Part shown: one piece after another, positions 12,629 through 52,264 of the stretch | Layout of the letters: every line of letters begins with the position of its first letter | Position numbering within the stretch: the stretch's first letter is position 1 | IMG/VR virus record: IMGVR_UViG_3300044641_010325 | Span: 1-54,523 of that record | Direction: 5' to 3' (one strand) | DNA from: a virus | Taxonomy: Duplodnaviria > Caudoviricetes | DNA length: 54,523 nucleotides | Notes under the pieces: generated by a model | Databases searched by the model: none | Seen by the model: the letters and a program-made list of their open reading frames with translations, nothing else | Told to the model about the DNA's origin: nothing | Translations under genes and position numbers: made by a program

Positions 12629-12661
12629 CATGAACGCGCTGTTCGCGATGGAAGCCAAGCG
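12629..12661 (-). promoter_or_regulatory. 33-bp repeated motif, copy 1
   Basis: Minus strand CGCTTGGCTTCCATCGCGAACAGCGCGTTCATG, 33 nt before ATG 12595. Confidence 0.7.
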
Positions 12662-12782
12662 AAAGATCGCGTTCTTCGGCTTGTTTTTTCCGTTCTTTCG
12701 CGAGCCGCATCGCATGCCGATTTTCACTGCGCAATGCCGCGCCTCGGCACGGCATTGCGTTGGGCTGCGTTGCGCTGCGACA

Positions 12783-13376
12783 TCAGGCCGTCGGCGCTGT
12801 GTCGGCGATGCGGTACACGCGCACGCCGCCTTCGGCCTTGTCGGAGGTGACGGTCAGGCCGAGCTTCTTCTTGAAGGCCCCGGCGAAGGTGCCGCGCACC
12901 GTGTGCGCCTGCCAGCCGGTCGCTTCGCAGATCTGCGGGATCGTGGCGCCTTCGGGCCGCTTGAGCATCGCGATCACCTGCGCCTGCTTGCTGTTCTCGC
13001 GGGTGCGCGGTGCAGGCGTTTCGCCGTCGCCCGATGCGGTGGTGTCCTGCGTCGGCTTCGCGGCCTTGCGCGCGGTCTTCCGTGCGGGCTTGGCGGCGTT
13101 CTCGCCGGCCGGCGTCGCCGCTTCGGCGGTGGCCTGCGCGGCGGGGCGCGCGCGACCAAGCGCCTCGTAGGCGGCGTCGGTGACGATCCAGTCGCCGTGG
13201 TGGCCGATGATCATCGCGCGCACAAACAAGGCCTCGATGACCTTCTTCTGCGCGCCGCCCTTGATGGTGTCGGGGAACCATTCGATCTTGCCCTGCGTGC
13301 GGTCGATGGCGTGGGTCAGCACGGCGGTCTGGGTGTCGTTCAGCGTGATCGGCTTGGCGGTCGTTGCGGTGTTCAT
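12783..13376 (-). CDS. DUF3489-family protein (winged-helix-like C-terminus)
   Basis: RENSKQAQVIAMLKRPEGATIPQICEATGWQAHTVRGTFAGAFKKKLGL; AGGAG RBS before ATG 13376. Confidence 0.85.
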   Translation of the reverse strand: MNTATTAKPITLNDTQTAVLTHAIDRTQGKIEWFPDTIKGGAQKKVIEALFVRAMIIGHHGDWIVTDAAYEALGRARPAAQATAEAATPAGENAAKPARKTARKAAKPTQDTTASGDGETPAPRTRENSKQAQVIAMLKRPEGATIPQICEATGWQAHTVRGTFAGAFKKKLGLTVTSDKAEGGVRVYRIADTAPTA

Positions 13377-13421
13377 GCGTTGCTCCTGAGTGAGTGGTGT
13401 TGGATGTGGTTGGCGCGATGG

Positions 13422-13454
13422 GATGAACGCGCTGTTCCGCACCGAAGCCAAGCG
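13422..13454 (-). promoter_or_regulatory. 33-bp repeated motif, copy 2
   Basis: Minus strand CGCTTGGCTTCGGTGCGGAACAGCGCGTTCATC, 45 nt before ATG 13376. Confidence 0.7.
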
Positions 13455-13552
13455 CGATCTCGCGCATCCGCGTCGCGTTAAGCCAACGGACGGGAAGCCG
13501 TCGCCTGGCGCGCTGTGCGCGCATGAAGTCAAGTCATCGGTCAAACATTCGG

Positions 13553-14104: not shown

Positions 14105-14108
14105 CAGG

Positions 14109-16070: not shown

Positions 16071-16080
16071 GACGTGTCGC

Positions 16081-16302: not shown

Positions 16303-16306
16303 TCGG

Positions 16307-19113: not shown

Positions 19114-19116
19114 GCC

Positions 19117-19524: not shown

Positions 19525-20515
19525 CCCCGCGTTCTCGATGGCCGCGCTCACCGCCGCCATCAACCTGATCCCCAACCGCTATGGGCGCCTGCAGGAACTG
19601 GACCTGTTTCCGGAGAAGCCGGTGCGCCAGAACCAGATCCTGGTCGAGGAGCGGGCCGGTGTCCTGACCTTGCTGCCCACCAAGCCGCTCGGCGCACCGG
19701 GCACGCTGGCGGCGCGCAGCAAGCGCCGCATGCGCTCGTTCGTCGTGCCGCACATCCCGCACGACGATGTCGTGCTGCCCAACGAAGTGCAGGGGCTGCG
19801 CGCCTTCGGCTCGGAGACCGAACTCGAATCGATCGCGAGCGTGGTCGCCGAAAAGCTCGAGACCATGCGCAACAAGCACGCGATCACGCTCGAGCACCTG
19901 CGCATGGGCGCACTCAAGGGCCTGATCCTCGATTCGGACGGCAGCGTGCTCTACGACCTGTTCGAGGAGTTCCGGATCGCGCAGCAGTCGGTGGCGTTCC
20001 AGATCGACAACCCGAACAACGGCACCGACGTCAAACAGAAGTGCATCGAGACGCTCGCGCTGATCGAGGAAGGGCTGCTCGGCGAGTTCATGACCAGCGC
20101 GCGCGTGCTGTGCTCGCAGGAGTTCTTCGCCGCACTGACCTCGCACAAGGACGTGAAAACGGCCTATGCGCAGTGGCAGCAGGGCGCGGTGCTGATCAAC
20201 GACGTGCGCAAGGGCTTCAGCTTCGGTGGTCTGGTGTTCGAGGAATACCGCGGCAAGGCCTCGGACCTCGACGGCAACGTGCGCCGCTTCATCGCCCCGG
20301 GCGAGGCGCACGCCTTCCCGATCGGCACCATCAACAGCTTCGCAACCTACAACGCCCCGGCGGACTTCAACGAGACCGTCAACACGCTCGGTCAGCCGGT
20401 CTACGCCAAGCAGGAGCCGCGCAAGTTCGAGCGCGGGACCGACATGCATACCCAATCGAACCCGCTGCCGCTGTGTCTGCGCCCCAGCGTGCTGGTCAAG
20501 CTCTCGATCAACTGA
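19505..20515 (+). CDS. Major capsid protein, lambda gpE family
   Basis: LTAAINLIPNRYG, TLEHLRMGALKG, QSNPLPLCLRP. Confidence 0.9.
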   Translation: MLNPFNNPAFSMAALTAAINLIPNRYGRLQELDLFPEKPVRQNQILVEERAGVLTLLPTKPLGAPGTLAARSKRRMRSFVVPHIPHDDVVLPNEVQGLRAFGSETELESIASVVAEKLETMRNKHAITLEHLRMGALKGLILDSDGSVLYDLFEEFRIAQQSVAFQIDNPNNGTDVKQKCIETLALIEEGLLGEFMTSARVLCSQEFFAALTSHKDVKTAYAQWQQGAVLINDVRKGFSFGGLVFEEYRGKASDLDGNVRRFIAPGEAHAFPIGTINSFATYNAPADFNETVNTLGQPVYAKQEPRKFERGTDMHTQSNPLPLCLRPSVLVKLSIN

Positions 20516-21049: not shown

Positions 21050-21351
21050 GCGCGCCGCTCGATCCGGCCTTCGAGGCCGCCCACGACGCGCTGTTCGCGG
21101 TGTTCGGCGAGCCGGCCATCGTGCGCCGGGGCCGCAGGCCACCGGTGGCCGTGCGTGTGGTGATCACCTACAACGTGGCCGAGTTGGGCGACTACAGCCA
21201 GGGCTTCACCCGCGTCACCACCGTGAAGTTCCGCAAGACCGAGTGGACGCCGCGTGCGGGGGATGTGTTGCACGTGCCCGGCGGCCGGTTCCGGATCGAG
21301 CGCATCGTCGTCGACGACGGCTTCGTGACCGAAACGGTGCTGCATGGGTGA
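21046..21351 (+). CDS. Head-tail joining/closure protein
   Basis: GTG 21046 overlaps the endolysin stop; 101 aa beta-rich (PRAGDVL...FRIERIVVDDG); position. Confidence 0.65.
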   Translation: MSAPLDPAFEAAHDALFAVFGEPAIVRRGRRPPVAVRVVITYNVAELGDYSQGFTRVTTVKFRKTEWTPRAGDVLHVPGGRFRIERIVVDDGFVTETVLHG

Positions 21352-21795: not shown

Positions 21796-22092
21796 TCAGG
21801 GCTGTGCCGGCGGCCACATCCGCGCAACGTGAACCAGGGCCAGCACCCAGATGATCTGCGCGGTCTCGTCGACCTCATACACGAGCCGGTAGTTTTCGTG
21901 CGGTATCAGCTCGCGTGTGCCCGGCACGAGGCCGGCGCGGCCCATCATCGGAAATCGCGCCAGCGTCGCTGCGGCCTCGCCGAAGCGTTCATCCAGCGCC
22001 AGCGCCGCCATCGGCGCGTCTTCGCACACGGTCTCGAAGATGGCGAGGCGATCCTGACGGGCGGCGTCGCTCCAGCGGACCTTCACGCTCAA
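21796..22092 (-). CDS. Type II toxin, RelE/ParE family
   Basis: VRWSDAARQDR...FPMMGRAGLVPGTRELIPHENYRLVYEV...LVHVAR. Confidence 0.9.
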   Translation of the reverse strand: MSVKVRWSDAARQDRLAIFETVCEDAPMAALALDERFGEAAATLARFPMMGRAGLVPGTRELIPHENYRLVYEVDETAQIIWVLALVHVARMWPPAQP

Positions 22093-22373
22093 GCGCCGGC
22101 CTGGCGCCGCACGGCGTCGCGGCGCGCCGCGAACTCAGCCTCGACGGTCTCGTCCGAGGCATGCCGACCTTCGGCGATCTGCGCGCGGGCGCGTTCGACC
22201 TTGTCCTGCACGAAGGCCTCGTATGCCTGGCGTTGCTGCCGGCTGCGGACGTACTCGCGCATGAGTTCGCGCACGACCTGGGAGGCCGGTCGGTGCTCGG
22301 CTTCGGTCGCCGCCATGAAGGCATCGCGCAGTTCCGCTTCGAGCTTCAACGTGAACACGGTGGCTTTGGTCAT
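22089..22373 (-). CDS. Cognate antitoxin (ribbon-helix-helix type)
   Basis: VFTLKLEAELRDAFMAA...RPASQVVRELMREYV; overlaps the toxin start; GGAG RBS. Confidence 0.85.
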   Translation of the reverse strand: MTKATVFTLKLEAELRDAFMAATEAEHRPASQVVRELMREYVRSRQQRQAYEAFVQDKVERARAQIAEGRHASDETVEAEFAARRDAVRRQAGA

Positions 22374-22430
22374 GGCCAAGGCTCCAGAAAGGTACTAACG
22401 TCGTATGCACAATAGCATGACGGGACGGCC

Positions 22431-35820: not shown

Positions 35821-35853
35821 CGCTTGGCTTCCATCCCGCACAGCGCGTTCATG
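35821..35853 (+). promoter_or_regulatory. 33-bp repeated motif, copy 3
   Basis: CGCTTGGCTTCCATCCCGCACAGCGCGTTCATG, 24 nt before ATG 35878. Confidence 0.7.
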
Positions 35854-36215: not shown

Positions 36216-36248
36216 CGCTTGGCTTCCCTCCAGAACAGCGCGTTCATG
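36216..36248 (+). promoter_or_regulatory. 33-bp repeated motif, copy 4
   Basis: CGCTTGGCTTCCCTCCAGAACAGCGCGTTCATG, 38 nt before ATG 36287. Confidence 0.7.
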
Positions 36249-36698: not shown

Positions 36699-36731
36699 GG
36701 CTTGGCTTCTTCCCCGAACAGCGCGTACATG
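36699..36731 (+). promoter_or_regulatory. 33-bp repeated motif, copy 5
   Basis: GGCTTGGCTTCTTCCCCGAACAGCGCGTACATG, 26 nt before ATG 36758. Confidence 0.7.
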
Positions 36732-37527: not shown

Positions 37528-37560
37528 CGCTTGGCTTCACTCGCGAACAGCGCGTTCATG
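37528..37560 (+). promoter_or_regulatory. 33-bp repeated motif, copy 6
   Basis: CGCTTGGCTTCACTCGCGAACAGCGCGTTCATG, 30 nt before ATG 37591. Confidence 0.7.
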
Positions 37561-38216: not shown

Positions 38217-38249
38217 GACTTGGCTTCACATCCGAACAGCGCGTTCATG
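38217..38249 (+). promoter_or_regulatory. 33-bp repeated motif, copy 7
   Basis: GACTTGGCTTCACATCCGAACAGCGCGTTCATG, 52 nt before ATG 38302. Confidence 0.7.
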
Positions 38250-38948: not shown

Positions 38949-38981
38949 GACTTGGCTTTTATCGAAAAAAGCGCGTTTATA
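38949..38981 (+). promoter_or_regulatory. 33-bp repeated motif, copy 8 (divergent, AT-richer)
   Basis: GACTTGGCTTTTATCGAAAAAAGCGCGTTTATA, same spacing as the other copies. Confidence 0.55.
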
Positions 38982-39243: not shown

Positions 39244-39482
39244 GCGAAACCACGCGCGAGATCCCGTTCCGCATCATCCCTATCGACCAGCGCCCATTGC
39301 TGTTGGTCGCCTCTGGTGTAGAAGTCGCCATCGCACTTCGTGAAGCTGCCGACCTTGAAGATTCGGTTCGTCGCCTGCTATTGCTTGGAACAGAGACGGG
39401 CCTTGACGGAGGAATAGCATACCTTTGCGAGTTCGCTCTGGAGATCTCTGGCGCACTGCGAAAATCGACCGCTGATGAGTGA
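39240..39482 (+). CDS. DUF3077-like small protein (80 aa)
   Basis: PLLLVASGVEVAIALREAADL...IAYLCEFALEISGAL resembles the DUF3077/DUF6124 pattern. Confidence 0.5.
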   Translation: MSETTREIPFRIIPIDQRPLLLVASGVEVAIALREAADLEDSVRRLLLLGTETGLDGGIAYLCEFALEISGALRKSTADE

Positions 39483-40034
39483 CGGCGAACATATCTTGCT
39501 ACAGCAGCAACGCGATTGATCAGATTGCTGCGCGGCCTCAAACTCCAAGTGCAACACGAGAGGCGCTAATAGAAGCATGATTCCGACGGGGCACTGCAAG
39601 TCCGTTTTACGTTCCGGCAGAATGCCCGTGAACTTTTCCAGCTTGCACGTCCCTGCGCGCTTCACGCAGGCTCAGCGGCGGACGGAGGCCGCCTCACTCC
39701 TCGTACTGGGCCTCGACGCCTGCGCTGTGGTGACGCACACGAAAGCGCCGAGTGCATACAGTCTCCAGCTAGCCGTGCATTGCAGGCGTGCATGCCACCC
39801 CGCTCGCTGAAGCACATAGTGAAACGGCTACGCGCACCGGAGATGTTCGAGGCGACGGTCCCGAAGGCTGCCGCCCTCGACTCAACTCTGGAGGGGACGA
39901 AGGTGTCGGTGGCGATTACCTAGATCGCGCATGAATCTGCCACCTTCCCCATTACTAGGCGCCAAGGAGCGCGAGGTCAAGCGGCTTGGCGTACTTCTGT
40001 CAATAAGTATTGCAGCAGCCAGCTATGCTCATAC

Positions 40035-41114
40035 TCAGGTCTCTACTGCGCATCCGCGAGCTTCATCCCACTCGACCACCTGTCCATCGACAAGGAGGAA
40101 GGCAGCTCGCTTTCCAGGCGCGCCAGCCTCGAAGCGGTCAATTGCTTCGAGCGCCGTGGAATCGCATCGCAATACAGGGCGCGATGCTCCAGTACTACTG
40201 TCAATCACGGAATCACGTTGGCCGAGATCGTTGCCGTATACAAGAAGGTCCGTGGCACCGATCCAACCCAGCCCCGGGTTCTTTGCTGGAATTTGAGCGA
40301 TCTCCCGCCCAGCGGCGGCAACCAATATGAGCTTTCCCTCAGTCTCAACCGCTGCAATAGATGCGTCACGTGCCCCCAAGATGCGAGCGAACGGTCCATG
40401 CGCCAGTTTGCGCCGCACAAATCCTTTTGCGACGCGGCACACCGAAAACAAAGTGGCCATTCCACCGTTCCGGATGGTGTACAGGCTGCACTGACTATTT
40501 GGATCTGGCTGTTCGGTAGGAACAACTGCGATCCAAGGCTTAGGTGGGTTGCGTAAGATTCCACTCTCAAACGGAATGCCAAGTTTGAGCGCGTGGGACT
40601 CGGTAGGCGGAGGATCCCATCCATTATCTCTGTACCAAACAATGTCGCGGTACGTAGCGTCGATCATTGCTGCCTCCGACTTGCTGAACGGCGGATGAAA
40701 CAGCACCAGAGTCGGTCTCGGCACAGCTAGGTCAACCAGGTGGATGGCACCCTTCGCATCCACTAGCATCACGTGGCTCTTGGAGCGGACGTCAACCGCT
40801 TCAATCGTGCGGGGAAGCGCCGCAACCTCGCCCAACAACCGCTGGCTGGCTGCATCAAGCGCGATCTGTTCGCCAGCCACCTCGATGGCCGGCGCCTGAC
40901 CCGGCTGCGTGGCCCGGCGCAGTAGCCCGGCGACCTCTGTTGGCTGAAAGGGGCCCGTGCGCGCCAAGGTCCCCAGTACTTCGATGGCACCTTCGCCAGC
41001 CGGATTGGTCTGTTGTGCCGATAAGCCGACTGGGATTGAGGTAAGCAGTCCGAGCGCGACCACTGATAATAAGAGCCTCCCTAAAGTTCGACATGTTCCT
41101 GCAGTCCGTGGCAC
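40035..41114 (-). CDS. Exported hypothetical protein (start uncertain)
   Basis: Long ORF; signal-peptide-like RLLLSVVALGLLTSIPVGLSA-QQ; GTG 41114 chosen to avoid overlap with the divergent gene. Confidence 0.6.
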   Translation of the reverse strand: MPRTAGTCRTLGRLLLSVVALGLLTSIPVGLSAQQTNPAGEGAIEVLGTLARTGPFQPTEVAGLLRRATQPGQAPAIEVAGEQIALDAASQRLLGEVAALPRTIEAVDVRSKSHVMLVDAKGAIHLVDLAVPRPTLVLFHPPFSKSEAAMIDATYRDIVWYRDNGWDPPPTESHALKLGIPFESGILRNPPKPWIAVVPTEQPDPNSQCSLYTIRNGGMATLFSVCRVAKGFVRRKLAHGPFARILGARDASIAAVETEGKLILVAAAGREIAQIPAKNPGLGWIGATDLLVYGNDLGQRDSVIDSSTGASRPVLRCDSTALEAIDRFEAGAPGKRAAFLLVDGQVVEWDEARGCAVET

Positions 41115-41142
41115 GGTATAGTCGCTCAAGGAGGAAAGTTCT

Positions 41143-42606
41143 ATGCGCACTTGGAAACGATTTTTAGTGAGGTTACGGCGCGCGACCCGAACCCACCCGC
41201 TGATAGCACCAATCATCACAGTCGTTCCCCCACTCCTGATCGCGGCACTTTCTTTTAGCTTATTTCAAATCGCCGGTCAAAGTAAGTATGTCGGCGACCT
41301 CGCTGATCAGGCGCTTGCCACGCGCATGAGCATCTTTGCCAACACTTATGAGTCGCGCGTGGGCGCACGTTCGATTGTCTTCCTCAACTATGACGAAGTG
41401 ACCGCCGCCGCGCTGCGAGATCCAGTACTCATCCCTTCGGAAGTCACTGCTAAGACCCTGTCAACGCTGGCGGATTTCCGCCCATGGGCGGTGGTGGTCG
41501 ACTTCGATCTTGGCTATCTGACCAATAAGCAACAAGATTCAACGATATCAGGGCCGGCGTCGCTTGAAGCGTGGCGTGGACTCGATGCCTTGCGGCGTGC
41601 CATCAGGACGCTGGCTGAGGCGGGCACGGTTGTTATTCTCGTACGCGAGACGCTTCCAGGGATTGACGATCCCGATAGCCTGCGGCTGCGTGCGTCGGCG
41701 CTTGACGATTTCGTCGCGAAAACACCACGCGTGCTCTGGGCTACCGCTACCTATGCGGCTGAGCCAAACCGGGTAGTGCGCCGAATCTGGCCGATCCAGA
41801 GCGCCAGCTTAGATGGCAGGCCAGTCGTCCTGCCGTCGGTCCCGCTGGTGCTCAAGCTGCTCACGATGGATGGAAGCGCCGAACGGCTCGACGGCTTGGT
41901 AGCAGCTGGTCTGGCTGGCCAGTCTACCTGCGGAGCGCGCGCGCGGGACAGCTTTATTTTCTGTACGCGGTCGGGAGCGTTCTCAGTTACAGAAAAGCCG
42001 GCGCTGCCGATCGACTACACCCTGAAATGGCCCATTCCGGCCGCGCTGGGACTGCCTCGGATCCCTGACGGCGCCGGCAGCAGGCCACAGACTGCATTGG
42101 CCTCGATTCACCCTTTTGTATTCGGAAATGGCCAGCATGATCCTGCGCTGTTCCGTGACTCCTTGGTGGTGGTGGGCGCAACAGCGGGGCGCCGTGACCA
42201 GCGCCCCACGCCAATCGAGACCATGCCCGGAGCATATGTCATCGCGAATGCAGCTCGCGACTGGATCGAGTTCGGGCCTCGGCGAGATTCCTTTTTCGAG
42301 GGGCTATGTCTTGTGCTGCTTGCCACGCTGACACTTTCGATTCTGCTGCAATTGCTGCGGCAGATCAGCGTAGCTTTAGATCGGTTGCCCAAGACTTCCA
42401 TGGCCGCGCGGCTTTACGGTCGACTGTCACCGCTGCTGGCCCGTCTGCGCAAGTGGCTCGCGCCGTTGCTGACCGGGATTCTCTGGGCCGTATTCCTCGT
42501 CTACGGCAACCCGGCGGTCTCGGTGGGACTTGTAGTGACGGCCTATGTCGTGGTATCGGGAAGCGTCTTTTTCGAGACTTTCGCGTATAGACTGAGTCGT
42601 GCTTAA
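41143..42606 (+). CDS. CHASE2-domain membrane protein with no cytoplasmic output domain
   Basis: N-terminal TM; IVFLNYDE, AVVVDFDL, VVRR, VVVGAT...D.RPTP...MPGAYVIANA; three C-terminal TM segments, then stop. Confidence 0.8.
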   Translation: MRTWKRFLVRLRRATRTHPLIAPIITVVPPLLIAALSFSLFQIAGQSKYVGDLADQALATRMSIFANTYESRVGARSIVFLNYDEVTAAALRDPVLIPSEVTAKTLSTLADFRPWAVVVDFDLGYLTNKQQDSTISGPASLEAWRGLDALRRAIRTLAEAGTVVILVRETLPGIDDPDSLRLRASALDDFVAKTPRVLWATATYAAEPNRVVRRIWPIQSASLDGRPVVLPSVPLVLKLLTMDGSAERLDGLVAAGLAGQSTCGARARDSFIFCTRSGAFSVTEKPALPIDYTLKWPIPAALGLPRIPDGAGSRPQTALASIHPFVFGNGQHDPALFRDSLVVVGATAGRRDQRPTPIETMPGAYVIANAARDWIEFGPRRDSFFEGLCLVLLATLTLSILLQLLRQISVALDRLPKTSMAARLYGRLSPLLARLRKWLAPLLTGILWAVFLVYGNPAVSVGLVVTAYVVVSGSVFFETFAYRLSRA

Positions 42607-42624
42607 CGACAGGGAGAAAGGTGT

Positions 42625-43461
42625 ATGCGGGGTATAGTTTCGGTCCTGACTCTCGCGCTAATGTTGGTCTCTTCGGGATCGGCAATTGCACAGGCGAAGC
42701 AATGCCGCTCACTCAATCCTGGCGTGGTTATCGTCATGGAGGGCGGTTCGCAGGCATTCGAACTCATGCGCAAAGGTCAGCGCACAAAGGTTGGCTATTA
42801 CACTGAATTGCAAGAGGGAGACCGCATCCGGATGGTCGCTGCAGGGCTGCTGCGCATTCAGCAGGCCAATGGGCAATTCGTTTCCATCCAAGAGATGGGT
42901 TCATGGTTCTGCATCGTCGCTGGACCCCGGCTAACTTGGTGGAACAATGCGACTCGCTCGATTGGCGAACTGCTTACTGTCGAGCAGGATGGCGTGGATG
43001 ACCTGCTGACGCGCAACGACGAGTCCTTTCAAATCGCGCCACGGGATGTCGCGGCTGGGACTGCTCGGATCGGTACAGGGAAGCGTTATCTCGCCCTATC
43101 GTGGTTTGGTGGAGAAGCGCCGTTCAACGTCACAATATCGAAGCCGGGCCAGTCTGCATTAGTCGCGGAGACAAATATCAACGCACGGTTGTTGAGGCTG
43201 ACGTCGGCAGTGCGTGATGTGGCACCAGGAACTTATACCGTCGAGGTCCGCGACGCGGATGGACGCACCGTTACCGGGAGTTTCACTGCCTCGGGCAGCG
43301 TCGACCTCCCGGACGGCAGCGACGAAGCGCTCGCGCGTGCCGGTGCGCTTCTTGCCGCCGAGCCAGCGCAATTGTACGAAGCGTTTTTGCTGCTTAGCCC
43401 GTATCGCCGTGATAGTAAGGCTGCGTCCGACCTCATGAACATCATATCCAAGGTCAAATGA
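42625..43461 (+). CDS. Exported beta-rich hypothetical protein
   Basis: Signal peptide MRGIVSVLTLALMLVSSGSAIA; Ig-like C-terminal part (PGTYTVEVRD); coupled to the CHAT gene. Confidence 0.7.
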   Translation: MRGIVSVLTLALMLVSSGSAIAQAKQCRSLNPGVVIVMEGGSQAFELMRKGQRTKVGYYTELQEGDRIRMVAAGLLRIQQANGQFVSIQEMGSWFCIVAGPRLTWWNNATRSIGELLTVEQDGVDDLLTRNDESFQIAPRDVAAGTARIGTGKRYLALSWFGGEAPFNVTISKPGQSALVAETNINARLLRLTSAVRDVAPGTYTVEVRDADGRTVTGSFTASGSVDLPDGSDEALARAGALLAAEPAQLYEAFLLLSPYRRDSKAASDLMNIISKVK

Positions 43462-46388
43462 GCCGTTCATCGCTCCGACGCTTGGGCCGGCAGGCGCTGG
43501 CCCTGCTGTTGCCCCTAACGGTCAGCCTCGTTCTGGCAGAGGACCGGGCGCGTTCTCGCGAGATCGACGATTCGGTGGTGTGGGCCGAGCGATTGGTTGA
43601 ATCGCAAGAGAACAATGCTACCAAGGAACAAATTAGAGAAAGGCGGCTGGCGCTCGAAGCTGCGTATGAACGCGTGATCCGGCTGGGCCCCAGTTACCAT
43701 ACGTGGAACCCGACTCATTTCGGCCCCGTAAAGGTGCACCGGCTACTCGGCATGCTGGCGATCTATGAGGGCCAATTTGCTGAGGCTGAACGGCGGTTCG
43801 CGGAGGCAATCACACTCGCTGAACGATCGGAGCAGGAGCGCGAGGATCTTTCCGATCTCGCGCGCGCGCGCGCGACCGCGCTTGCGCTGGATGGCCGATT
43901 TCACGAATCCACCGTGCTCCTCGCCGAGACGCCGTGTGCGACGGGGGCATCATGTTCAATTTCATTGTATAGCAAGACTTGTCGCCAGGTGATGGCCAAG
44001 ACGATCACGATTGACTGGTCTCTGGTGAAGCGTGGACCGCGGGGGCTGTGTCCAGCGACCGCATTTATTCAGTCGGCAGAGATTGCCGAAGCTTTATCGC
44101 GCTCGGATCTGGTGGAGCCATTTGCAAGGCTCGCAGTGTTCGCGGCCACCGATCTGCGCTTTGTCGCCGCAGGAGAAGCAGGGGCGGTACGCTTCGATGC
44201 CACGTTGCTCCTATTCAACTGGTTCAGGCTTCGAAATCGTGATGCTGAGGCTGCTGCGCTCATACGTGCTGCTCGCACCGACACGGAACTGGCAGCCGCG
44301 GGCGGGGAGTTCTTTCGCTCGCTCGAAGCTTGGACTCGCGACATTGAATCGTCGCCCGCCACCGCCGCAGCACTACCTTCGGCGAATCCATACTCTAGCG
44401 ATACGCTCGACGAGGCAATTGCCAGTAACGAACGCGCGCTGGACGAGGTCACTCCCAATCTGATTACGGTTACGCCTTGGATCGGGGGCCCGCAAGCTAA
44501 CACCGGCAGCATGAAGAACGCCAGCGAAATTCTCAGGGCGCTCGCCATGCAGTACCGTCTCAAGCGAGACTTCGTCCGCGCGCGTCAATATAGTGACCAG
44601 GCGCTCTACTACGTGCCTGGCTTTGTCGCACCCTCACTACCGTTGCGGCTGGATTTTGGCCCGAGAGGCCCTACTTGCCCCCCAGGGCGCATGCACTTGG
44701 CCGAGTGCAAGGCATGGAACGAGGATTCAATCGACAGCTATGCCAACGCTTTCGTCTCCGAGCTACTGCACGAACGTGCTTTGATCGAGGCGGATGCGGG
44801 GAACGTCTCGGAAGCACTGTTGATCGATGAGCGCGGTACACGCGTGCTTCAGAATTGGCTGGCCCGCAATTGGCCCACGCAACAGGACGTACTGCAGACG
44901 CTCAAACAGCGACGCTGGCTGGAGAGCGAACGGCTTGGCATCTTCGCTCGCATCGCTCAAGGAAGTGGGCCAGAGGCCGATGCTGCCAAGGCGCGTGCAT
45001 TTGAAGCAGTACAGCTCCTTCAGTTCAACCGTGTAGAAGCTGGTTTGCGTTCAGCCATCGCGCGTGGTGCCAGCGGGACCGCTGAGCATCAGCTCATCCT
45101 ACAGCAGCGGCAAGTTCTTCAAGAGGAGCGGTTCCGCGTCCGAAATGATCGCGCCGCGAGCGAGGCGGTGGCTGGCCGCATCGCCTTGCTCGAGCGCCAG
45201 CTGCCCTTCTCGGCAAGCGAATTCGAGCGCCGCACCACGTTCGCGGCGCTGGATCTCGATTCAGCAAGAGCTGCGCTGACGCCTGACGAAGCGCTGGTGG
45301 TGCTCACTCAACTTGATGATCGCATCGAGGCGATGGCGATCACTACAGCAGGGGTCACCTGGGTGACCGCGCCAGCAAGCGAGGCATGGGTGCAAGCCGA
45401 GGTCGAGAAGCTCCGGCGCCACCTGGACAATCCCCGAGGTGATCCGCAAGGGTTTGACAGGAACGCTGCTTATATGCTCTACCAGCGCATTCTGGCGCCC
45501 CTCACGGGCCAATTCGGCAATCGCCTCCTTTTCATTTCTGCAAACGGGCCGCTCGCAGAAGTTCCACTTCAGATCTTGGTGACCGAGAGGCCGCGCGGCT
45601 CCGATGTTGCGCCGCAGGCACTGCGCGACACCGCTTGGCTGATGCGCAATCATGCGCTAGTTTCGCTGCCTTCGGTCGCGTCGCTTCGCTCCTTGAAGGC
45701 GAACAAGCGAGTGAACCGTCGCGACGCGCTCATCGGGATCGGCGCCCCCCCCGGCGCCTCGCCGCTGCCGGAAGAGGAGGTGCGCACCGACGAGGACAGG
45801 CAACTAAAATTTGCGGCAGCGGAGTTGAAGAAGCTCGGCGAGAGTCGACGTGGTGGTCCAGTCGTCCTACTTACAGGTCCCAATGCCACCGAGGCCAGGT
45901 TGCGCGCGACGGACCTGCGCAGCACTGCGATCCTTGCCTTCGCTACGCATGCCAAGCCGGGCGGAGCCCCAGAATCACCCTACCCCGGGCTGGTGCTTGC
46001 GCGCGATCCGCGTAATCTGGCCGGTGCGACCAACGACGGCTTCCTCAGCGCGGACGAAGTCGCATTGTTGCCGATCGGCGCGGACATTGTGATCCTGTCC
46101 GCGTGCAGCACTACAAGTTCCGACGGCCGTGGCGGTGAAGTGCTGAGCGGCTTAGCGCTCTCGTTCCTTTTCGCCGGGGGGCAGACCGTGATTGCTACGC
46201 ATTGGCCGGTGGTTGATGCTGCAGCCGCAGAACTCGTCACCGGTGCCATCGGAGGCGCCGCGAGCCCAAGCCCGCAGGAATTAGCCCGGAGGCTTCAGAT
46301 TCAAATGCAGCAACTGATGATGAGCTCAAGCGATTCGCGCTTCGCCGATCCGCGCGTATGGGGCGCTTTCGTCGTGGTCGGTGGCTAG
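43458..46388 (+). CDS. TPR + CHAT (caspase-like) protease with putative signal peptide
   Basis: TPR-like helices; LYQRILAPL, GPLAEVP, NATE, catalytic His AFATHA and Cys LSACST, HWPVVD, WGAFVVVG. Confidence 0.9.
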   Translation: MSRSSLRRLGRQALALLLPLTVSLVLAEDRARSREIDDSVVWAERLVESQENNATKEQIRERRLALEAAYERVIRLGPSYHTWNPTHFGPVKVHRLLGMLAIYEGQFAEAERRFAEAITLAERSEQEREDLSDLARARATALALDGRFHESTVLLAETPCATGASCSISLYSKTCRQVMAKTITIDWSLVKRGPRGLCPATAFIQSAEIAEALSRSDLVEPFARLAVFAATDLRFVAAGEAGAVRFDATLLLFNWFRLRNRDAEAAALIRAARTDTELAAAGGEFFRSLEAWTRDIESSPATAAALPSANPYSSDTLDEAIASNERALDEVTPNLITVTPWIGGPQANTGSMKNASEILRALAMQYRLKRDFVRARQYSDQALYYVPGFVAPSLPLRLDFGPRGPTCPPGRMHLAECKAWNEDSIDSYANAFVSELLHERALIEADAGNVSEALLIDERGTRVLQNWLARNWPTQQDVLQTLKQRRWLESERLGIFARIAQGSGPEADAAKARAFEAVQLLQFNRVEAGLRSAIARGASGTAEHQLILQQRQVLQEERFRVRNDRAASEAVAGRIALLERQLPFSASEFERRTTFAALDLDSARAALTPDEALVVLTQLDDRIEAMAITTAGVTWVTAPASEAWVQAEVEKLRRHLDNPRGDPQGFDRNAAYMLYQRILAPLTGQFGNRLLFISANGPLAEVPLQILVTERPRGSDVAPQALRDTAWLMRNHALVSLPSVASLRSLKANKRVNRRDALIGIGAPPGASPLPEEEVRTDEDRQLKFAAAELKKLGESRRGGPVVLLTGPNATEARLRATDLRSTAILAFATHAKPGGAPESPYPGLVLARDPRNLAGATNDGFLSADEVALLPIGADIVILSACSTTSSDGRGGEVLSGLALSFLFAGGQTVIATHWPVVDAAAAELVTGAIGGAASPSPQELARRLQIQMQQLMMSSSDSRFADPRVWGAFVVVGG

Positions 46389-46504
46389 GGCCGCCTACTA
46401 CTCAAAAGTGCGTAATTTTCGGAACAACTTGCGAAGGAAGCCACTGAAAAACAAGGTGCTTTCACCGCGGCTGTGTTCCCAAAGTTACTGACTTCTCAGT
46501 AATA

Positions 46505-46633
46505 CTACCGCAGCGCTTCGATGTTCAATGCGATATGAATGAAACCGACAAACAAGATGTCGAGTTTGTCGTATCTGCTAAAGATGCGCGGGAAGCCATT
46601 CAGTCTTCTGAATAGCCACTCGATCTCGTAGCG
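46505..46633 (-). mobile_element. IS5-family transposase C-terminal remnant
   Basis: Minus-strand translation RYEIEWLFRRLNGFPRIFSRYDKLDILFVGFIHIALNIEALR*. Confidence 0.7.
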
Positions 46634-46680
46634 TCAAAGATAGATTGCTTTTTTGAGGACACAGCTGTGGCTGGCTTTTG

Positions 46681-46860
46681 CTTTCTTGGGTCACTCCGCG
46701 TTGTATTCGCGACGCCATCGTTCGATTAGTGTTTGTGCTTATAGCTTGCTGGTAAACCAGTGCTCGTTCAGGTACTTGTCACGGAGTCAGCCATTGAACG
46801 ATTGAATGTAGGTGTTCTGGCCCAGCTTTTCTGGTTCGATCTGGCGCTGTGTCATACGCT
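46681..46860 (-). mobile_element. Degraded IS3-family transposase (integrase core) remnant
   Basis: Minus-strand RQIEPEKLGQNTYIQSFNG*LRDKYLNEHWFTSKL*AQTLIERWRREYNAE*, with internal stops. Confidence 0.75.
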
Positions 46861-46932
46861 GGTGGCGTGCTCAGACCGTCGTGTGCTTTGCTCAAAATTC
46901 TTTGATGTTTTCGTAGTGTATTCAACGATCAG

Positions 46933-47898
46933 CTATTGCGCCTTGGACGATATAGACCTAAATGGGTTGGCATTAGGGATGTAAACATCAAGATGTTTTG
47001 ACAACCAGTCTAACTGGTCCTGCAAATGAGGGGCGCTACGTATTTGCATTGAGAAGACATGCTCTCTGAAAGTGCGCGGGATAAGTCCAATGCCACCATA
47101 GCCATTAGGAATAGGGAAGTTCAAGCTGGGACCCTTGAAGAAAACCACGGAGTGCCTGTCCGAATCATCAACTGAGACTCGATGCATCGTGGCCTTAATG
47201 GTTCCCGCTGAAACTACTTCAAACATGTCCCCTGGGATGATGACTGAATGCAAGGGTTTCCATTCAACAGCTATCCATTCTCCTGTTGGCGTTTGCACTT
47301 CGAGCCCTGGTCCATCCGCAATTACTATCGTCAGCAGCTCATAGTCGGTATGCTCTTTGCTTACAAGATTTCGACCCAATGTTGAGTATTTCAAAAAGCG
47401 CGCTAATCCGTATGAAGACATTGCTGCAGGGAACTTGCAGTAATCGGAGTTATCAAATTGCATTTGCATATGCGCGACTACGCTTTCGCAAAGAAATGTC
47501 GCATACTCATTCAGTCGAGATGAAACATGGAGATATTGCTCTGTTGATATTTCGCAAGCCTGGAGCTTTGGGTTATCCAAAAATGGCATGTTGCCAAGTA
47601 GTTCTGTGCATGCAGTTGGAACCACATCGAACGAAGAATACCCTCGGGGCCGCTTAAGTGATTTTATCCAATGTGGCATTTCTATGCCGGAGCAACGCAA
47701 TGATTCGATCTCGTGTTCTGAAGGCATGTACCCTGGAATACCAAGAACCGGAGACACCAAGCAACTAGACCTATCCATTGCAGACAACGAGTGAAAGCGC
47801 ACACACATGTCCAATGCATAATCGCACAGATGCGGTTCAATTTTCTGAAGCGCATATCCTTTCTGAGCGATGCAGCTCATGATTCCTGGTGCATCCAC
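46933..47898 (-). CDS. 2OG-Fe(II) oxygenase (IPNS/ethylene-forming-enzyme-like fold)
   Basis: HTD (EHTDYELLTI), GLEVQ...GEWI, GDMFE.VSAG..KATMHRV, RHS 2OG-binding motif. Confidence 0.88.
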   Translation of the reverse strand: MDAPGIMSCIAQKGYALQKIEPHLCDYALDMCVRFHSLSAMDRSSCLVSPVLGIPGYMPSEHEIESLRCSGIEMPHWIKSLKRPRGYSSFDVVPTACTELLGNMPFLDNPKLQACEISTEQYLHVSSRLNEYATFLCESVVAHMQMQFDNSDYCKFPAAMSSYGLARFLKYSTLGRNLVSKEHTDYELLTIVIADGPGLEVQTPTGEWIAVEWKPLHSVIIPGDMFEVVSAGTIKATMHRVSVDDSDRHSVVFFKGPSLNFPIPNGYGGIGLIPRTFREHVFSMQIRSAPHLQDQLDWLSKHLDVYIPNANPFRSISSKAQ

Positions 47899-47913
47899 GT
47901 CGCCACCCAGTGC

Positions 47914-49146
47914 CTATTCAATCAGCCCACACACTGTGTCAGGTTGACCATGAACTTTAGTTCCTTTTCGGTACTGCGCGCGGACCCCGACCAACCCTAG
48001 CGGGCCATAAAAACTTGAGAACTTGGCACTCATCCTCCCCTTGCCTAGCGCTCCGGATCGTCCGTCAAAGAAGTCGACATCTGCCTTCCTACCAATAGAT
48101 GGCTGAATGACCCAAGGCCGGTTTCTCTTTACATCATGTAAGGCGCGCTCTATTAATTCCGCAGAATCACTTCCGTGCAGCGCGTAAACGGCACGGCTAC
48201 CCCAGTTGAGAGATGTATCTGAGCCCGCGTACTTTAGATAGTACCGGCGATCCTTTGGAGACCTCCCCAGGAACTGCTTGACTGAGCACCATTTTCCATC
48301 TACATCACGAAAACCAGATTCATGCAGCGGGTATGTGTAGACGAGGGCGTTTCGAATAGAGTCTGAAAATCTATGCCTTGTTGCATCCATGAACGGAAGC
48401 GTAAGAATAACTTTCTGATCAAATATCATGATGGGTGGCAAGTCAAATCGGCATAGCCCTTTAGCAGCTCTATCGAGTCGAGTCCAGAATAAATTCTCTG
48501 CAACCAGCCCCTGAACTGAGTGACTCCTAATTAGTTGAGCATCCAGACTCCGCAATCCAGGGGAGTGTCCGACGTACTTAACTCGAGACTGAGTAAGCCG
48601 CATTAGCAATCGCATCGAGCTTGGGTTCGAAGAGTTGTCCAAGAGATGCAAGACGGTAGGCGTGCCATTTCCAGCGGCAGCGCATATGTTATTCGTGAGC
48701 ATCTGGATATAAGCTTCGCATTTTGAATCGTCCGTAACCCCGATTAGCTCATAGACTCTCGCGAGTAGTGGTAAATCCCCCCAGCCTGAGCCAGGGCATT
48801 GGATTTCATAGATCTCTCCACTTACTGCCTCGTCTGTGCGATAAAACCTAGGCACATGCCATGCGCACTCCGGCAACAAATTGTAAAACTCTAGCCCGAA
48901 CTGCTTAATCGAATCATTCAAGAGATAAGGGAGAATATCTTGAAATCTACCCTCTACCACCGCTTCGCGAAAGAGAGCCAAGGCATCGGTCAGAAACTCG
49001 TTGATTACTTGATTTCGTGATTTACGCAACGACATCTCATCGCTTCTTATATGCGCAATATCACGTAAGAGAAATTGATCGAAGACGTCTGGTAGCGCCT
49101 GGGCCTCCCCCAATATTTGTTCAACAACACCAGCTTGAATTCTCAT
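47914..49146 (-). CDS. ATP-grasp-like amide ligase (glutathionylspermidine synthase/circularly permuted ATP-grasp-like)
   Basis: RTD...YEIQCPGSGWG, YYLKYAG...WGSRAVY, WVIQP. Confidence 0.55.
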   Translation of the reverse strand: MRIQAGVVEQILGEAQALPDVFDQFLLRDIAHIRSDEMSLRKSRNQVINEFLTDALALFREAVVEGRFQDILPYLLNDSIKQFGLEFYNLLPECAWHVPRFYRTDEAVSGEIYEIQCPGSGWGDLPLLARVYELIGVTDDSKCEAYIQMLTNNICAAAGNGTPTVLHLLDNSSNPSSMRLLMRLTQSRVKYVGHSPGLRSLDAQLIRSHSVQGLVAENLFWTRLDRAAKGLCRFDLPPIMIFDQKVILTLPFMDATRHRFSDSIRNALVYTYPLHESGFRDVDGKWCSVKQFLGRSPKDRRYYLKYAGSDTSLNWGSRAVYALHGSDSAELIERALHDVKRNRPWVIQPSIGRKADVDFFDGRSGALGKGRMSAKFSSFYGPLGLVGVRAQYRKGTKVHGQPDTVCGLIE

Positions 49147-49154
49147 GAGGATGC

Positions 49155-50648
49155 CTATGAATTCAGCACGCTTAAGCCAGGCGTATTTACGGCAGGAATT
49201 GAATCAGCTTCAACCTCAAAAGAAGCGGTCGCATATGAGCAGTAGTCTGCTGAAAGGTATCCGGCGGGCCTGTAGTTTCCGCTGTGCTTCACTCCCCCAA
49301 AAGGAGCGAAAGTGGTGGCGCCAGTAAGTTGCTGATTCCAGTTGATAATCCCGGCCTTTACACGCGATGAAAACGTGTGATATTTCTCGTATTCACGTGT
49401 GACAATTCCAGCGGCGAGCCCAAATTTTGTAGACGCAGCAGCGCGAATTCCGGCCTCAAATGTATCGTAGAACTCAAGCTGTAAAATTGGTCCAAATAAC
49501 TCCTCGTCTATTTTGCTAGTGCACTGACTTACATCGATCAGGCCTGGACTCAACATTGTCCCGTAAGGCCCAGAAAGAGTCGGCCTCTGAAGATAAACAG
49601 CCCCTCCTTCCTCTAACTTTTGTGCAAATTCCAATGCTCGCCTTGCCGTGCCAGGTCGAATCATGGGGCCATAGAAAGGCTCAGGGTCTTCCTTGTAGTG
49701 ACCGATTCGCACCTTAGGCAAAACACTCGCGATCTGAATAGCAAGATCGGCATGCTTATTGTTTATGAGAAGCCGCCGCGCTGCTGAGCAACGTTGTCCT
49801 GAACTAATGAAAGCCGAGTGTATTATTACGCTTAGGACGGATCGAAGGTCTTTCTCATCGAAGTCTTCGATAAGCAACGGGCTGTTTCCACCCATTTCTA
49901 CTGCTACAATCTTCTCTGGGTTTGCGGCAGTACTTTCAAGAATGGACATTCCTGCGGAGTGACTGCCAACAAAGAAAACACCGTCAACGTCGCGACTCTG
50001 AATCAGCATGCTGCCGACATCGCTGCCGCCAGTCACGCAACTCATCACACCAGGTGGAAGCCCTGCCTCGCTCCAAAGCTGGGCAACGGCCATTCCACAT
50101 AACGACGTCAATTCACTCGGTTTGAATACCACGGAGTTTCCGGCAATTAGCGCCGGCATGATGTGTCCATTTGCCATGCTGAGCGGGAAATTGTAGGGGC
50201 CTAGCACGACCACCAAGCCATGCGGCCGAAAACGCGTTCGCGATTGAAGTCCATTCACAGTTCGGCCACTTTCGGCACAACGTTTAGAATAGGCATCAAC
50301 ACTAGCTTCAAGCTTGGTGATCAGGCTGTTCACCTCTATCCTAGATTCCCATAAAGGTTTTCCAGCTTCTGTTGCAACTAACCTTGCAAGCTTTTCCTTA
50401 TCTCGCTGTACCAATTTCGTAAAATTCGTGGCAACTTCGATCCGTTTATCCAGACTTCGGCTACTCCATGACTCAAATGCTGCTTTGGATTCACAAATAG
50501 CTGATCTGATAATGTCAGCTGTTGGCGCCGAACTTGACCACAGCATCTCGCCTGTGTAGGGATCGACCGATTGGATATCGGTACCTGGTCCATAATTGAT
50601 TTTCTCGGCAGCTATGTACGCTGATGGCGATGAAGAATGCTCGCTCAT
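49155..50648 (-). CDS. Aldehyde dehydrogenase, succinylglutamate-semialdehyde dehydrogenase (AstD)-like
   Basis: FRPHG.VVVLGPYNFP, VVFKPSELT, EMGGN, SAFISSGQRCS, EELFGP, APFGG...SGNYRP...ADYC. Confidence 0.9.
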   Translation of the reverse strand: MSEHSSSPSAYIAAEKINYGPGTDIQSVDPYTGEMLWSSSAPTADIIRSAICESKAAFESWSSRSLDKRIEVATNFTKLVQRDKEKLARLVATEAGKPLWESRIEVNSLITKLEASVDAYSKRCAESGRTVNGLQSRTRFRPHGLVVVLGPYNFPLSMANGHIMPALIAGNSVVFKPSELTSLCGMAVAQLWSEAGLPPGVMSCVTGGSDVGSMLIQSRDVDGVFFVGSHSAGMSILESTAANPEKIVAVEMGGNSPLLIEDFDEKDLRSVLSVIIHSAFISSGQRCSAARRLLINNKHADLAIQIASVLPKVRIGHYKEDPEPFYGPMIRPGTARRALEFAQKLEEGGAVYLQRPTLSGPYGTMLSPGLIDVSQCTSKIDEELFGPILQLEFYDTFEAGIRAAASTKFGLAAGIVTREYEKYHTFSSRVKAGIINWNQQLTGATTFAPFGGVKHSGNYRPAGYLSADYCSYATASFEVEADSIPAVNTPGLSVLNS

Positions 50649-50687
50649 GCTTTTCTCGTTGACCTGATCAGAATAAGAAATTGCGTT

Positions 50688-51644
50688 CTATTTTGCTTCG
50701 TTTGAGTGCGATCTATGTTCTTTCGGAGCTAGATTTGTTGATGGCCTGTCGATACCATCATCCTTTGATGATGTAACTCGCAATATGCCTGCTTGGTCGG
50801 ATTTTTGCAGCTTGACGTTTGCTGCTTCGCTTCTTTCAGTTCCTGCGATTTGTTGCCATTTACCCAAGGGGTTGTATCCGGCAGCGGAGCCTGCAACTCC
50901 AAACGCACTTAGTACCACAAACACTAGGCTTGCAATTGTTAGCCGAACGCCAATAGTTATGCTCTTCCGCCCTTGATCCGTGTTGTGTGCCATTCCGTAT
51001 GCTTGGCGCAGAGTGTCCGAAATTGCATTTTGAAGCGAATAGTCGTGGAACGCTTGCTCGTACTTTTGCCAACTTTTGAAGGTTAGGATTCCACTCAACG
51101 CGCGCAGGTTCGGCGTTGCGCCACCCCTGCCTGATGATCCTTGAGGTATAACTTGCACCAGCGAGTAGAACAGACTTAGTGCGGATAGCACTAGCGCCAT
51201 GCTGATGAGTATTGTCGCGAGCACATCTTGAAGGCATTCTTTAAAGAGGAAGCCAATCGCAGCGAGGAGAAGGCTGTTTGTCGTAATCAGTGACAATGCC
51301 TTTGCGTCTGTCCAAGAGTAGAGTCGGTACTGCTTATCCAGCAAATCAAGAACGAATTCCTTGAACCAAATTTCGGAATTTGTGGCAGCATGCGTGCCTG
51401 AGGAATCAGCCGCGTCTATGTTTAAGGCGGGCGAAGTCTCCCCTTCAACGAGAGGATGCGTCGCTATCGAGATCTGTTCAGATTGATTGGAAACGGAGGA
51501 GTCAAGCTGCTGCGCTTGCGCAGTAGTCGCGACTCCGACTTGGAGCGGAGCATTTCCAATCGCTTGACTTATAGACTCGGCGGGGCTGACGTCGGGCACA
51601 CCCTCGTCGGGACTTGAATTAATCTTTTCCGTCGAGCCTTCCAT
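50688..51644 (-). CDS. Pycsar-effector-like (PycTM/DUF5706-like) membrane protein with a disordered N-terminus
   Basis: WTDAKALSLITTNSLLL (TM1), SLFYSLVQVIPQ (TM2), Y...F...ISDTLRQAYGMA...K, TM3; G-rich RBS before ATG 51644. Confidence 0.7.
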   Translation of the reverse strand: MEGSTEKINSSPDEGVPDVSPAESISQAIGNAPLQVGVATTAQAQQLDSSVSNQSEQISIATHPLVEGETSPALNIDAADSSGTHAATNSEIWFKEFVLDLLDKQYRLYSWTDAKALSLITTNSLLLAAIGFLFKECLQDVLATILISMALVLSALSLFYSLVQVIPQGSSGRGGATPNLRALSGILTFKSWQKYEQAFHDYSLQNAISDTLRQAYGMAHNTDQGRKSITIGVRLTIASLVFVVLSAFGVAGSAAGYNPLGKWQQIAGTERSEAANVKLQKSDQAGILRVTSSKDDGIDRPSTNLAPKEHRSHSNEAK

Positions 51645-52054
51645 GCTCACCCCCCCCAGGGAGTTGGTAAGAAAATCCTTTACAAATAGCTGCGCACTCA
51701 ACTTCCTTGAATATGATGACCGCCAGCCAGAATATCGAGCAGGTTGCTGCAGCCCCCACAACGGGGAAGCACCGCTTGTTAGTGCGCCCCGGATATGCTC
51801 CAGACCGAGTTTACATCAGCTTCAGCGTCTGTTGTCAACCAGGTGGTCGCACGGATCTATGACTTCTGCGTCGCCGGGCCTGATTGGCAATGTCGGGTTC
51901 AATCCAGCCGATGTCGGCGGTCGGCATTCGTCTCAACGATACCCACAAAAGGGCTATACCGGTCTGGCAAGCCTACGTTCTACTCTACGCTGCGATACAG
52001 CATCGTGATGGCACTGAGACACTTTCCGCTGGTTTGATATTCCAGCGAACTCCC

Positions 52055-52264
52055 GTGACGCCTTCCAACCTCCACGACCCGGCCCGCATGACGGCGTCAC
52101 AGCGGCGCACAGAGGCCGCCGTGCTACTCGCCTTGGGCCTGTACCGCCTACGTGACGGTAATGCGCACGGCGACACCGACGGCGCAGCCTCTCCGGTCTG
52201 TCTTGGCTTTGACGCGGCTCAGCGCGTCTATGTGGACCCCACCAACCGGAGTCCACAGGCATGA
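52055..52264 (+). CDS. Small hypothetical protein upstream of DUF2924
   Basis: PARMTASQRRTEAAVLLALGLYRLR; ATGA overlap with DUF2924; start uncertain. Confidence 0.45.
   Translation: MTPSNLHDPARMTASQRRTEAAVLLALGLYRLRDGNAHGDTDGAASPVCLGFDAAQRVYVDPTNRSPQA
52200..52232 (+). promoter_or_regulatory. 33-bp repeated motif, copy 9
   Basis: GTCTTGGCTTTGACGCGGCTCAGCGCGTCTATG, 28 nt before ATG 52261. Confidence 0.6.

Follow-up and report, generated by a model that had tools for sequence, protein, structure and literature searches.

A recurrent 30-bp sequence as a candidate standardised promoter of accessory cassettes and the recombinase operon in AcaML1-like temperate phages

What connects the small accessory genes of a temperate phage with its recombinase? 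The question is raised by the 54.5-kb IMG/VR provirus record IMGVR_UViG_3300044641_010325 (54,523 nucleotides, G+C 65%; this whole stretch is called the window below), in which copies of one short motif precede a series of small genes and, once, the operon of a large serine recombinase. A sequence-only reading had described nine fixed-length copies and proposed either a phage-specific promoter or operator, read by an element-encoded factor, or a recombination site. Here we report that the motif is common to a large group of temperate phages resembling the cultured Acidithiobacillus phage AcaML1, and is not private to the window prophage. We propose, with a probability of roughly 0.6, that it is the complete standardised promoter of these phages, spanning about −37 to −7 and heading both their accessory cassettes (morons) and their DUF2924-serine recombinase operon. 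Because the motif heads all of these units, they would form one regulon.

Nine copies of one core

The originally proposed consensus of 25 positions, scanned at up to 3 mismatches against 100 shuffles, has 7 copies in the window where 0 are expected. Refined by comparison with relatives, the core becomes CTTGGCTT-N11-AGCGCGTT-NN-T, with 17 specified bases in a 30-base span, and matches the window exactly 9 times at up to 2 mismatches (0.00 expected; 7 matches are perfect and 2 carry one mismatch; Table 1). These are the same nine places that had been listed from sequence inspection, all free of indels. The octamer CTTGGCTT by itself occurs 9 times versus 1.04 expected, every time within the motif. 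Each copy is co-oriented with the next gene, as had been claimed, and the last T of the motif lies 34, 46, 25, 39, 27, 31, 53 and 29 nt from the start codon for eight copies, the start behind the copy at 38951 being uncertain. The core scan and a gene map of the whole window, built from Pfam and PHROGs matches, also agree with the claim that no copy stands ahead of replication, head or tail genes. The proteins encoded behind the motif receive no function from PADLOC, NCBIfam or Pfam; one of them, the phrog_8020 protein, has no match at all in these three collections, and its protein atlas scores (at most 0.77) are uninformative.

Promoter-like geometry

If GTTCAT is taken as a −10 hexamer, TTGGCT falls at −35 with a spacer of 17 bp. 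The boxes CTTGGCTT and AGCGCGTT then occupy −36/−29 and −17/−10, and AGCGCGTT..T reaches −7, so that the invariant boxes coincide with the DNA contact positions of a sigma-70-family holoenzyme. TTGGCT matches 4 of the 6 bases of TTGACA, at a 17-bp spacing that falls within the canonical 16-18 bp, in all nine window copies. The −10 departs from its consensus: GTTCAT (variants GTTACT, GTACAT, GTTTAT and GTCTAT) has T at position 2 and makes 3 of 6 matches to TATAAT.

A further signal lies downstream. Among 117 dereplicated copies, 116 have a pyrimidine 6 nt past the motif and 103 a purine at the next base; the step, 7 nt past the hexamer, is visible by eye in 7 of the 9 window copies. We take this statistical signature as the predicted transcription start, and it supports the earlier description of sigma-70-like spacing combined with a non-canonical −10. 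The same 117 copies are A-rich from −44 to −40, and the 14 positions past the predicted start contain about 10% G, in line with the G-poor leader noticed originally. This leader is 24-33 nt long and includes a strong Shine-Dalgarno site. Clusters open with a copy near the divergent terminase gene, and a sigma-70-consensus scan of the two cluster-start regions returns 0 sites, which leaves the motif as the only promoter candidate there.

With T at −11 in its −10, the motif is not a canonical sigma-70 promoter. Host RNA polymerase with sigma-70 alone would probably read it poorly, because T stands at −11, where sigma-70 needs A, and because −17/−12 is invariant. A dedicated DNA-binding factor probably sets its activity.

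A motif shared by phages of many hosts

Searched for as an exact 23-base version, the motif turns up both in IMG/VR (at least 119 stretches) and in bacterial genome contigs (at least 120 stretches). Labels on the latter include Burkholderiales, Rhodocyclales, Lysobacterales/Xanthomonadales, Pseudomonas and Halotalea; we treat with caution a few that are unexpected (Nitrospira, Chloroflexota and alphaproteobacterial bins). AcaML1 itself (JX507079.1) carries four copies, at 3015-3043, 20434-20462, 21112-21140 and 22244-22272, all inside annotated coding sequences (gp5, gp29, gp30/31 and the TerS gene gp33). Upstream of its gp32, a DUF6900-like reading frame has been left unannotated; given this frame and the position of the motif copies inside coding sequences, several AcaML1 gene calls or starts look wrong.

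Across 239 related loci and the window, we count 604 copies at up to 3 mismatches, 587 of them with a co-oriented open reading frame (ORF). The start codon lies 30-39 nt past the motif in 493 of these 587, and a Shine-Dalgarno match accompanies 92% of the 604. The proteins downstream fall into 40 families, the largest being phrog_8020 (159 copies), the DUF3489 protein (142) and DUF6900 (104), and the usual array runs DUF6900, DUF3489, phrog_8020 with one motif copy per gene. The array separates the methylase genes from TerS and is encoded on the opposite strand; homologues of TerS, TerL and the methylases are present in 145, 131 and 124 of the 239 loci. Isolated motif copies also occur where the late operon ends, behind a phage lysozyme gene.

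As an observation apart, positions 2700-3600 of L162, a record titled Candidatus Nitrospira defluvii chromosome, hold a TerS / DUF6900 / DUF3489 module with two motif copies. Its nucleotide similarity to proteobacterial copies is high although the record is non-proteobacterial, reflecting either real transfer or an assembly issue.

Five whole genomes together contain 25 matches (4-8 copies each), all but one of them in prophage-sized groups. We also sampled 251 genomes evenly from the order of one motif-bearing bacterium (G024) and scanned them for the exact core, with the reversed pattern as control: 17 genomes hold 68 matches in total, 234 hold none and the reversed control gives 0. A dispersed repeat of the repetitive extragenic palindromic (REP) or bacterial interspersed mosaic element (BIME) kind, the possibility that the sequence-only reading had set against itself, is rejected on this distribution.

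Among 502 non-identical copies, drawn from loci retrieved by the motif, core bases almost never change, and variation falls on position 10, the N6, GAAC and the CA of GTTCAT. The N6 and the variants are specific to the downstream family, TCAATC with GTTACT marking phrog_8020 and CCTGCCC-GACC the recombinase operon. Since the N6 is family-specific, we conclude that each copy is inherited together with its gene and that selection, rather than copying from site to site, maintains the core. As for what defines a moron, the cassettes sit at module junctions and carry the motif as a candidate promoter. GC-rich hairpins behind several cassettes can be seen by eye; a terminator scan finds 2 sites versus 2.3 expected.

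The link to the recombinase operon

Of 9 DUF2924-bearing records, 8 (AcaML1, the window, G004, G009, G011, G017, G022 and G023) have a motif copy 57-140 nt upstream of the DUF2924 match, G001 being the exception. The bacterial genome G024 also carries the motif upstream of DUF2924. Copies of this type share a variant of their own, with GACC, CACC, CCCC or GCTC instead of GAAC. The association of small accessory genes with the recombinase operon, first suggested by the window, is thus borne out in relatives: the motif links the two, and the link is conserved.

Read as a circle, the window has the motif of the recombinase operon 14.9 kb ahead of the leftward cluster, and G024:C1:1697455-1712653 is similar (14.2 kb, same strands). 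The record thus appears permuted, with the early genes following on from the recombinase operon.

Candidate readers of the motif

Our best candidate for a reader, put forward tentatively, is the DUF3489 protein. Its structural model (mean predicted local distance difference test score 70) has winged-helix domains at residues 10-75 and 125-191, and a disordered linker some 45 residues long connects them. The best structural matches are winged helix-turn-helix regulators: those of the C-terminal domain are NiaR, DriD and BirA-type (Z 8-9.1, root-mean-square deviation 1.6-2.4 Å over 62-68 residues) and those of the N-terminal domain are MarR-type and RuvB domain III (Z about 8); Z values of about 8-9 are common for small domains, and these matches indicate fold class only. 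A Foldseek search of the model against the PDB gave only weak winged-helix matches (E ≥0.035). The recognition-helix region is invariant across 26 homologues. In 57 of 291 loci (a few of which overlap), an inverted copy upstream of box 1 completes a perfect palindrome, AAGCCAAG-N9-CTTGGCTT, at one site per locus; in the examples inspected, this is usually the DUF3489 promoter. The protein is present in the window, in AcaML1, in 20 of 23 IMG/VR records and in 14 of 17 motif-bearing genomes. On this model, DUF3489 is a reasonable candidate regulator: it would bind the motif with one winged-helix domain per box and a flexible linker between them and, its gene being in the regulon, would be autoregulated.

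A bolder version, which we think unlikely, is that the motif and the tandem winged-helix DUF3489 protein make up a portable, host-independent initiation module, in which a protein other than a sigma factor recognises both boxes and either recruits the host RNA polymerase or remodels it. If so, the same 30-bp promoter would serve phages of Betaproteobacteria, Gammaproteobacteria and Acidithiobacillia without modification, and any newly gained gene could be expressed by plugging it in behind this standard sequence.

The other regulators suggested by the sequence-only reading fare less well. The helix-turn-helix protein encoded from 54068 matches a 'recombinase' PHROG and appears to belong to the recombinase operon. 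The distribution of DUF6362 and of DUF2924, set out below, tells against both.

Weighing the promoter proposal

Several points weigh against a dedicated phage promoter with its own reader. The start site and the promoter activity are themselves predictions. If a cassette is portable and functions in many kinds of phage, its promoter would be expected to be one that the host reads unaided. Related loci were fetched by exact match, so invariance inside the pattern arises by construction and only secondary copies inform on tolerance. None of the candidate factors is universal: DUF6362 is missing from AcaML1 with its four motif copies, and DUF2924 from three motif-bearing records (G002, which is 96% complete, G019 and G021). 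DUF3489 is absent from 3 of the 23 IMG/VR records, all incomplete (64, 37 and 16%), and from 3 of the 17 motif-bearing genomes, each with a single recombinase-type copy; one of these genomes, G261, holds a 4-kb remnant beside an insertion sequence element and host genes. The co-occurrence of DUF3489 with the motif is in any case weak evidence, because its gene belongs to the motif cluster. A Sigma70_r2 domain was found in 0 of 25 records. Sigma70_r4_2 gave sub-threshold matches only, two of which fall in the helix-turn-helix of DUF6362.

A possible but doubtful alternative is a self-sufficient moron promoter used by host RNA polymerase alone, with its primary or a widespread alternative sigma factor, the extra bases tuning strength or binding a host protein. 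The geometry and the A-rich −44/−40 segment fit host polymerase, which is near-identical among hosts from several proteobacterial classes, and single cassettes carry the motif into phages of other types, where it follows lysozyme genes in G002, G005 and G007, the last two without a GpA-type terminase. The lack of a universal candidate factor and of a phage sigma factor (Sigma70_r2, 25 records) points the same way. This alternative has to contend with T at −11, the 3 of 6 matches to TATAAT and the failure of the consensus scan to find a sigma-70 site; with 17 invariant bases, including an extended −10, that exceed what sigma-70 needs; and with the exact core preceding no host gene in 251 genomes. 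Nor did hand comparison with the consensus sequences show a fit to sigma-54, sigma-32, sigma-E or sigma-28. Sigma-54 promoters have GG at −24 and GC at −12, 10 bases apart; sigma-54 is rejected because most copies, having GAAC, show GG and then GA at the right distance, and only the minority GCAC variant fits. Promoters of extracytoplasmic function (ECF) sigma factors have a −10 core of CGT or GTT and a −35 with AAC about 16-17 bp upstream. GCGTT at −14 to −10 fits this −10 core, and the −35, TTGGCTT, is without AAC; no cognate ECF sigma gene was found (Sigma70_r2, 25 records).

The remaining explanations are less probable. An operator, that is, a multi-copy phage-repressor site like the stoperators of mycobacteriophages for which the promoter-like position is secondary, strikes us as improbable. 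It would account for an asymmetric, orientation-locked, multi-copy site, for the palindromic duplicate of box 1 at one site per phage and for the adjoining gene of a tandem winged-helix protein; against it stand the fixed distance to start codons, the pyrimidine-purine step, the divergent first copy, whose gene would be left without another promoter, and the absence from early and late operons, where stoperators reportedly occur. We give still less credence to a recombination or cassette-shuffling site for adding or swapping genes. Forty protein families lie behind the motif, arrays differ by whole cassettes, similarity between loci begins, by eye, at or just ahead of the motif, and 30 identical bases could support homologous exchange; against this, the family-specific N6 shows that copies are not homogenised, the motif is 5′ at a fixed distance to start codons and also heads the recombinase's own operon, no inverted repeat shows covariation, and the sole recombinase is a serine recombinase of phage-integrase type. 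Shuffling is thus not supported as the primary function; what stands from this suggestion is that the 5′ boundary of exchangeable cassettes coincides with the motif. Least probable, in our judgement, is an RNA-level element (processing, stability or translation) or a coding start on the reverse strand (ATG AAC GCG CTG TTC). The fixed start-codon distance and the G-poor leaders could serve translation, and the reverse complement does open with ATG. However, the consensus folds at −1.22 kcal/mol, 84 of 500 shuffles show at least as much covariation, T8 and T9 stay invariant where their supposed partners vary, and no Rfam match falls at the motif; ORFs from the reverse-strand ATG have a median of about 25 codons, and their third-codon positions are invariant.

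The imperfect inverted repeat described earlier does exist, in invariant bases only and with no covariation, and we give it no weight. RNA hairpins of the forms CGCT..TTC-N6-GAA..AGCG and GAAC/GTTC were rejected for lack of covariation and almost no folding energy, and reverse-strand coding (MNALF...) because the ORFs are short. CosB-like terminase sites, iterons and partition sites were rejected because copies lie at distant loci and at a fixed start-codon distance.

If the proposed phage promoter is real, one 30-bp sequence would predict accessory-gene transcription units in a large, mostly uncultured group of temperate phages, serve as a simple marker by which morons could be located and gene starts corrected, and tie the expression of small uncharacterised proteins to the integration enzyme. 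It would also offer a compact promoter with possible activity in several proteobacterial classes. With its non-canonical −10, the identity of its reader becomes a clear, testable question.

Other features of the window

Table 1 Motif copies, the genes that they head and the modules of the window
Feature	Position	Strand	Description	Source
Replication module	0.3-9.7 kb		AAA_24, Cas4-like exonuclease, D5-type primase, DUF6362, two ParB-N DNA methylases	Pfam, PHROGs
Low-GC insert	10-12 kb			
Two small genes	12.2-13.4 kb	leftward		
Family 0 gene	12221..12595	-	phrog_8020, 'AWGFWGT' protein, 124 aa	PHROGs
Motif copy	12630..12659	-	Perfect core; heads phrog_8020 gene	Core scan
DUF3489 gene	12783..13376	-	Family 1, phrog_10315; 197 aa, two winged-helix domains, disordered linker of ~45 aa	Pfam, PHROGs, model, fold searches
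Motif copy	13423..13452	-	Perfect core; heads DUF3489 gene	Core scan
Packaging, head, lysis and tail genes	to 35.7 kb	rightward	TerS, GpA-type TerL, lambda-type portal, S49 protease, gpD, capsid E, lysin, tape measure, tail genes	
Small accessory genes	35.8-39.5 kb	rightward	Consecutive	
Motif copy	35823..35852	+	Perfect core, GCAC replacing GAAC; heads 86-aa gene 35878-36138	Core scan
Motif copy	36218..36247	+	Perfect core; heads gene 36287-36669	Core scan
Motif copy	36701..36730	+	One core mismatch (GTACAT); heads genes 36758-37081 and 37096-37464	Core scan
Motif copy	37530..37559	+	Perfect core; heads genes 37591-37875 and 37872-38054	Core scan
Motif copy	38219..38248	+	Perfect core; heads DUF6900 gene 38302-38499 and phrog_22970 gene 38496-38696	Core scan, Pfam, PHROGs
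Motif copy	38951..38980	+	Perfect core, A/T-rich variable part; downstream start uncertain (frame 39018-39482)	Core scan
Cargo block	39.5-52 kb		Lower GC	
Recombinase region	52 kb to window end		DUF2924, large serine recombinase, recombinase-associated gene	
Motif copy	52202..52231	+	One core mismatch, recombinase-operon type without GAAC	Core scan; same position in relatives
Recombinase operon	52261..54523	+	DUF2924 (52261-52731), large serine recombinase (52683-54071), recombinase-associated protein phrog_14161 (54068 to window end)	Pfam, PHROGs

Within the accessory region, which has zero matches in a DNA search against cultured phages, the gene at 36287-36669 (+) is split over two reading frames near 36355-36365. 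An intact 119-aa relative is present in L039 (2469-2861, minus strand), and the split is either a frameshift or a sequencing error. Just past the last accessory cassette, sub-threshold Rfam matches fall at 39087-39159 (-) and 39089-39161 (+): one is to the SymR antitoxin RNA (42.7 bits versus a gathering score of 61, E 5.7e-6) and the other, on the other strand, to the R1162-like antisense RNA. These matches may mark a type I toxin-antitoxin locus or else a small antisense RNA.

The cargo block that follows (39500-52000, 48-60% G+C) encodes a CHASE2 protein (41143-42606), a TPR-CHAT protease-like protein (43458-46388), minus-strand 2OG-Fe(II) oxygenase and aldehyde dehydrogenase genes, and a protein with weak PycTM/2TM-effector similarity (50688-51761); it may be a defence or conversion island. 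The low-GC insert (10000-12200, 51-54% G+C) lies between the methylases and the leftward motif cluster, and its 586-aa ORF at 10090-11850 has no match in Pfam, PHROGs, NCBIfam or PADLOC. The ParB-N/DNA-methylase ORFs are listed at 6721-8406 and 7596-9653, an overlap of about 800 nt in different frames; the second probably starts well downstream of its first in-frame start codon. Inserted on the opposite strand within the head-tail gene block are a ParE-type toxin gene (21796-22092, -) and then a small partner ORF (22089-22379).

Comparison with known systems

In the searchable literature, there was no description of the motif or of the roles of its DUF families; none of the papers listed contained its 11-mers, and the papers with both 8-mers were unrelated.

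By the criteria quoted in PMC5567305, a moron is a promoter-gene-terminator unit inserted between phage modules. The motif cassettes resemble morons in being small autonomous units between early and late operons, after tail or lysis genes, or beside the integrase. They differ in that morons normally have unrelated sigma-70 promoters, whereas here dozens of unrelated cassettes share one invariant, non-canonical candidate promoter, which would also drive a core function, the recombinase.

The stoperators of cluster A mycobacteriophages and the start-associated sequences (SAS) of cluster K reportedly share with the motif an asymmetric, orientation-locked form and many copies per genome, and the SAS, like the motif, are said to stand just before the start codons of a subset of genes. 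Stoperators are described as bound by the immunity repressor and scattered in early and late operons, where they block elongation, whereas the motif is absent from replication, head and tail operons; the SAS are reportedly found 3-8 nt ahead of the start and take in the ribosome site, whereas the motif lies 30-39 nt upstream, in promoter geometry.

Two systems recall the coupling to integration. At the lambda CII promoters pI, pRE and paQ, a shared activator-type motif at the −35 is said to couple integrase with other non-lytic promoters, and both −35 and −10 are reportedly weak for sigma-70, as here. The CII site is reportedly a direct repeat, TTGC-N6-TTGC, which the motif lacks, with three sites per phage versus 4-9; a CII-type promoter is rejected, since boxes CTTGGCTT and AGCGCGTT are dissimilar and 11 bp apart and no CII homologue was identified. 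In the AcaCD/SetCD boxes of IncC plasmids and SXT elements, an element-specific box is said to replace the −35 before many operons, those for excision and integration included, and to be carried also by unrelated hitch-hiking islands, much like the motif cassettes. Those elements are conjugative and reportedly use an FlhDC-like activator, of which none was seen here.

In T4 middle promoters, with their MotA box, and the early promoters of Streptomyces phage phiC31, a long conserved sequence is likewise said to precede many phage transcription units, a phage-specific box replacing or extending the −35 in a sequence that departs from the host consensus. T4 middle promoters reportedly keep a good sigma-70 −10, and their factors, MotA and AsiA, are known, whereas the −10 of the motif is without A at −11; the motif, moreover, heads accessory and integration genes of temperate phages of several bacterial classes. 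The systems closest to the motif are such phage-specific promoter families, the CII-dependent promoters, the AcaCD and SetCD boxes and the moron concept.

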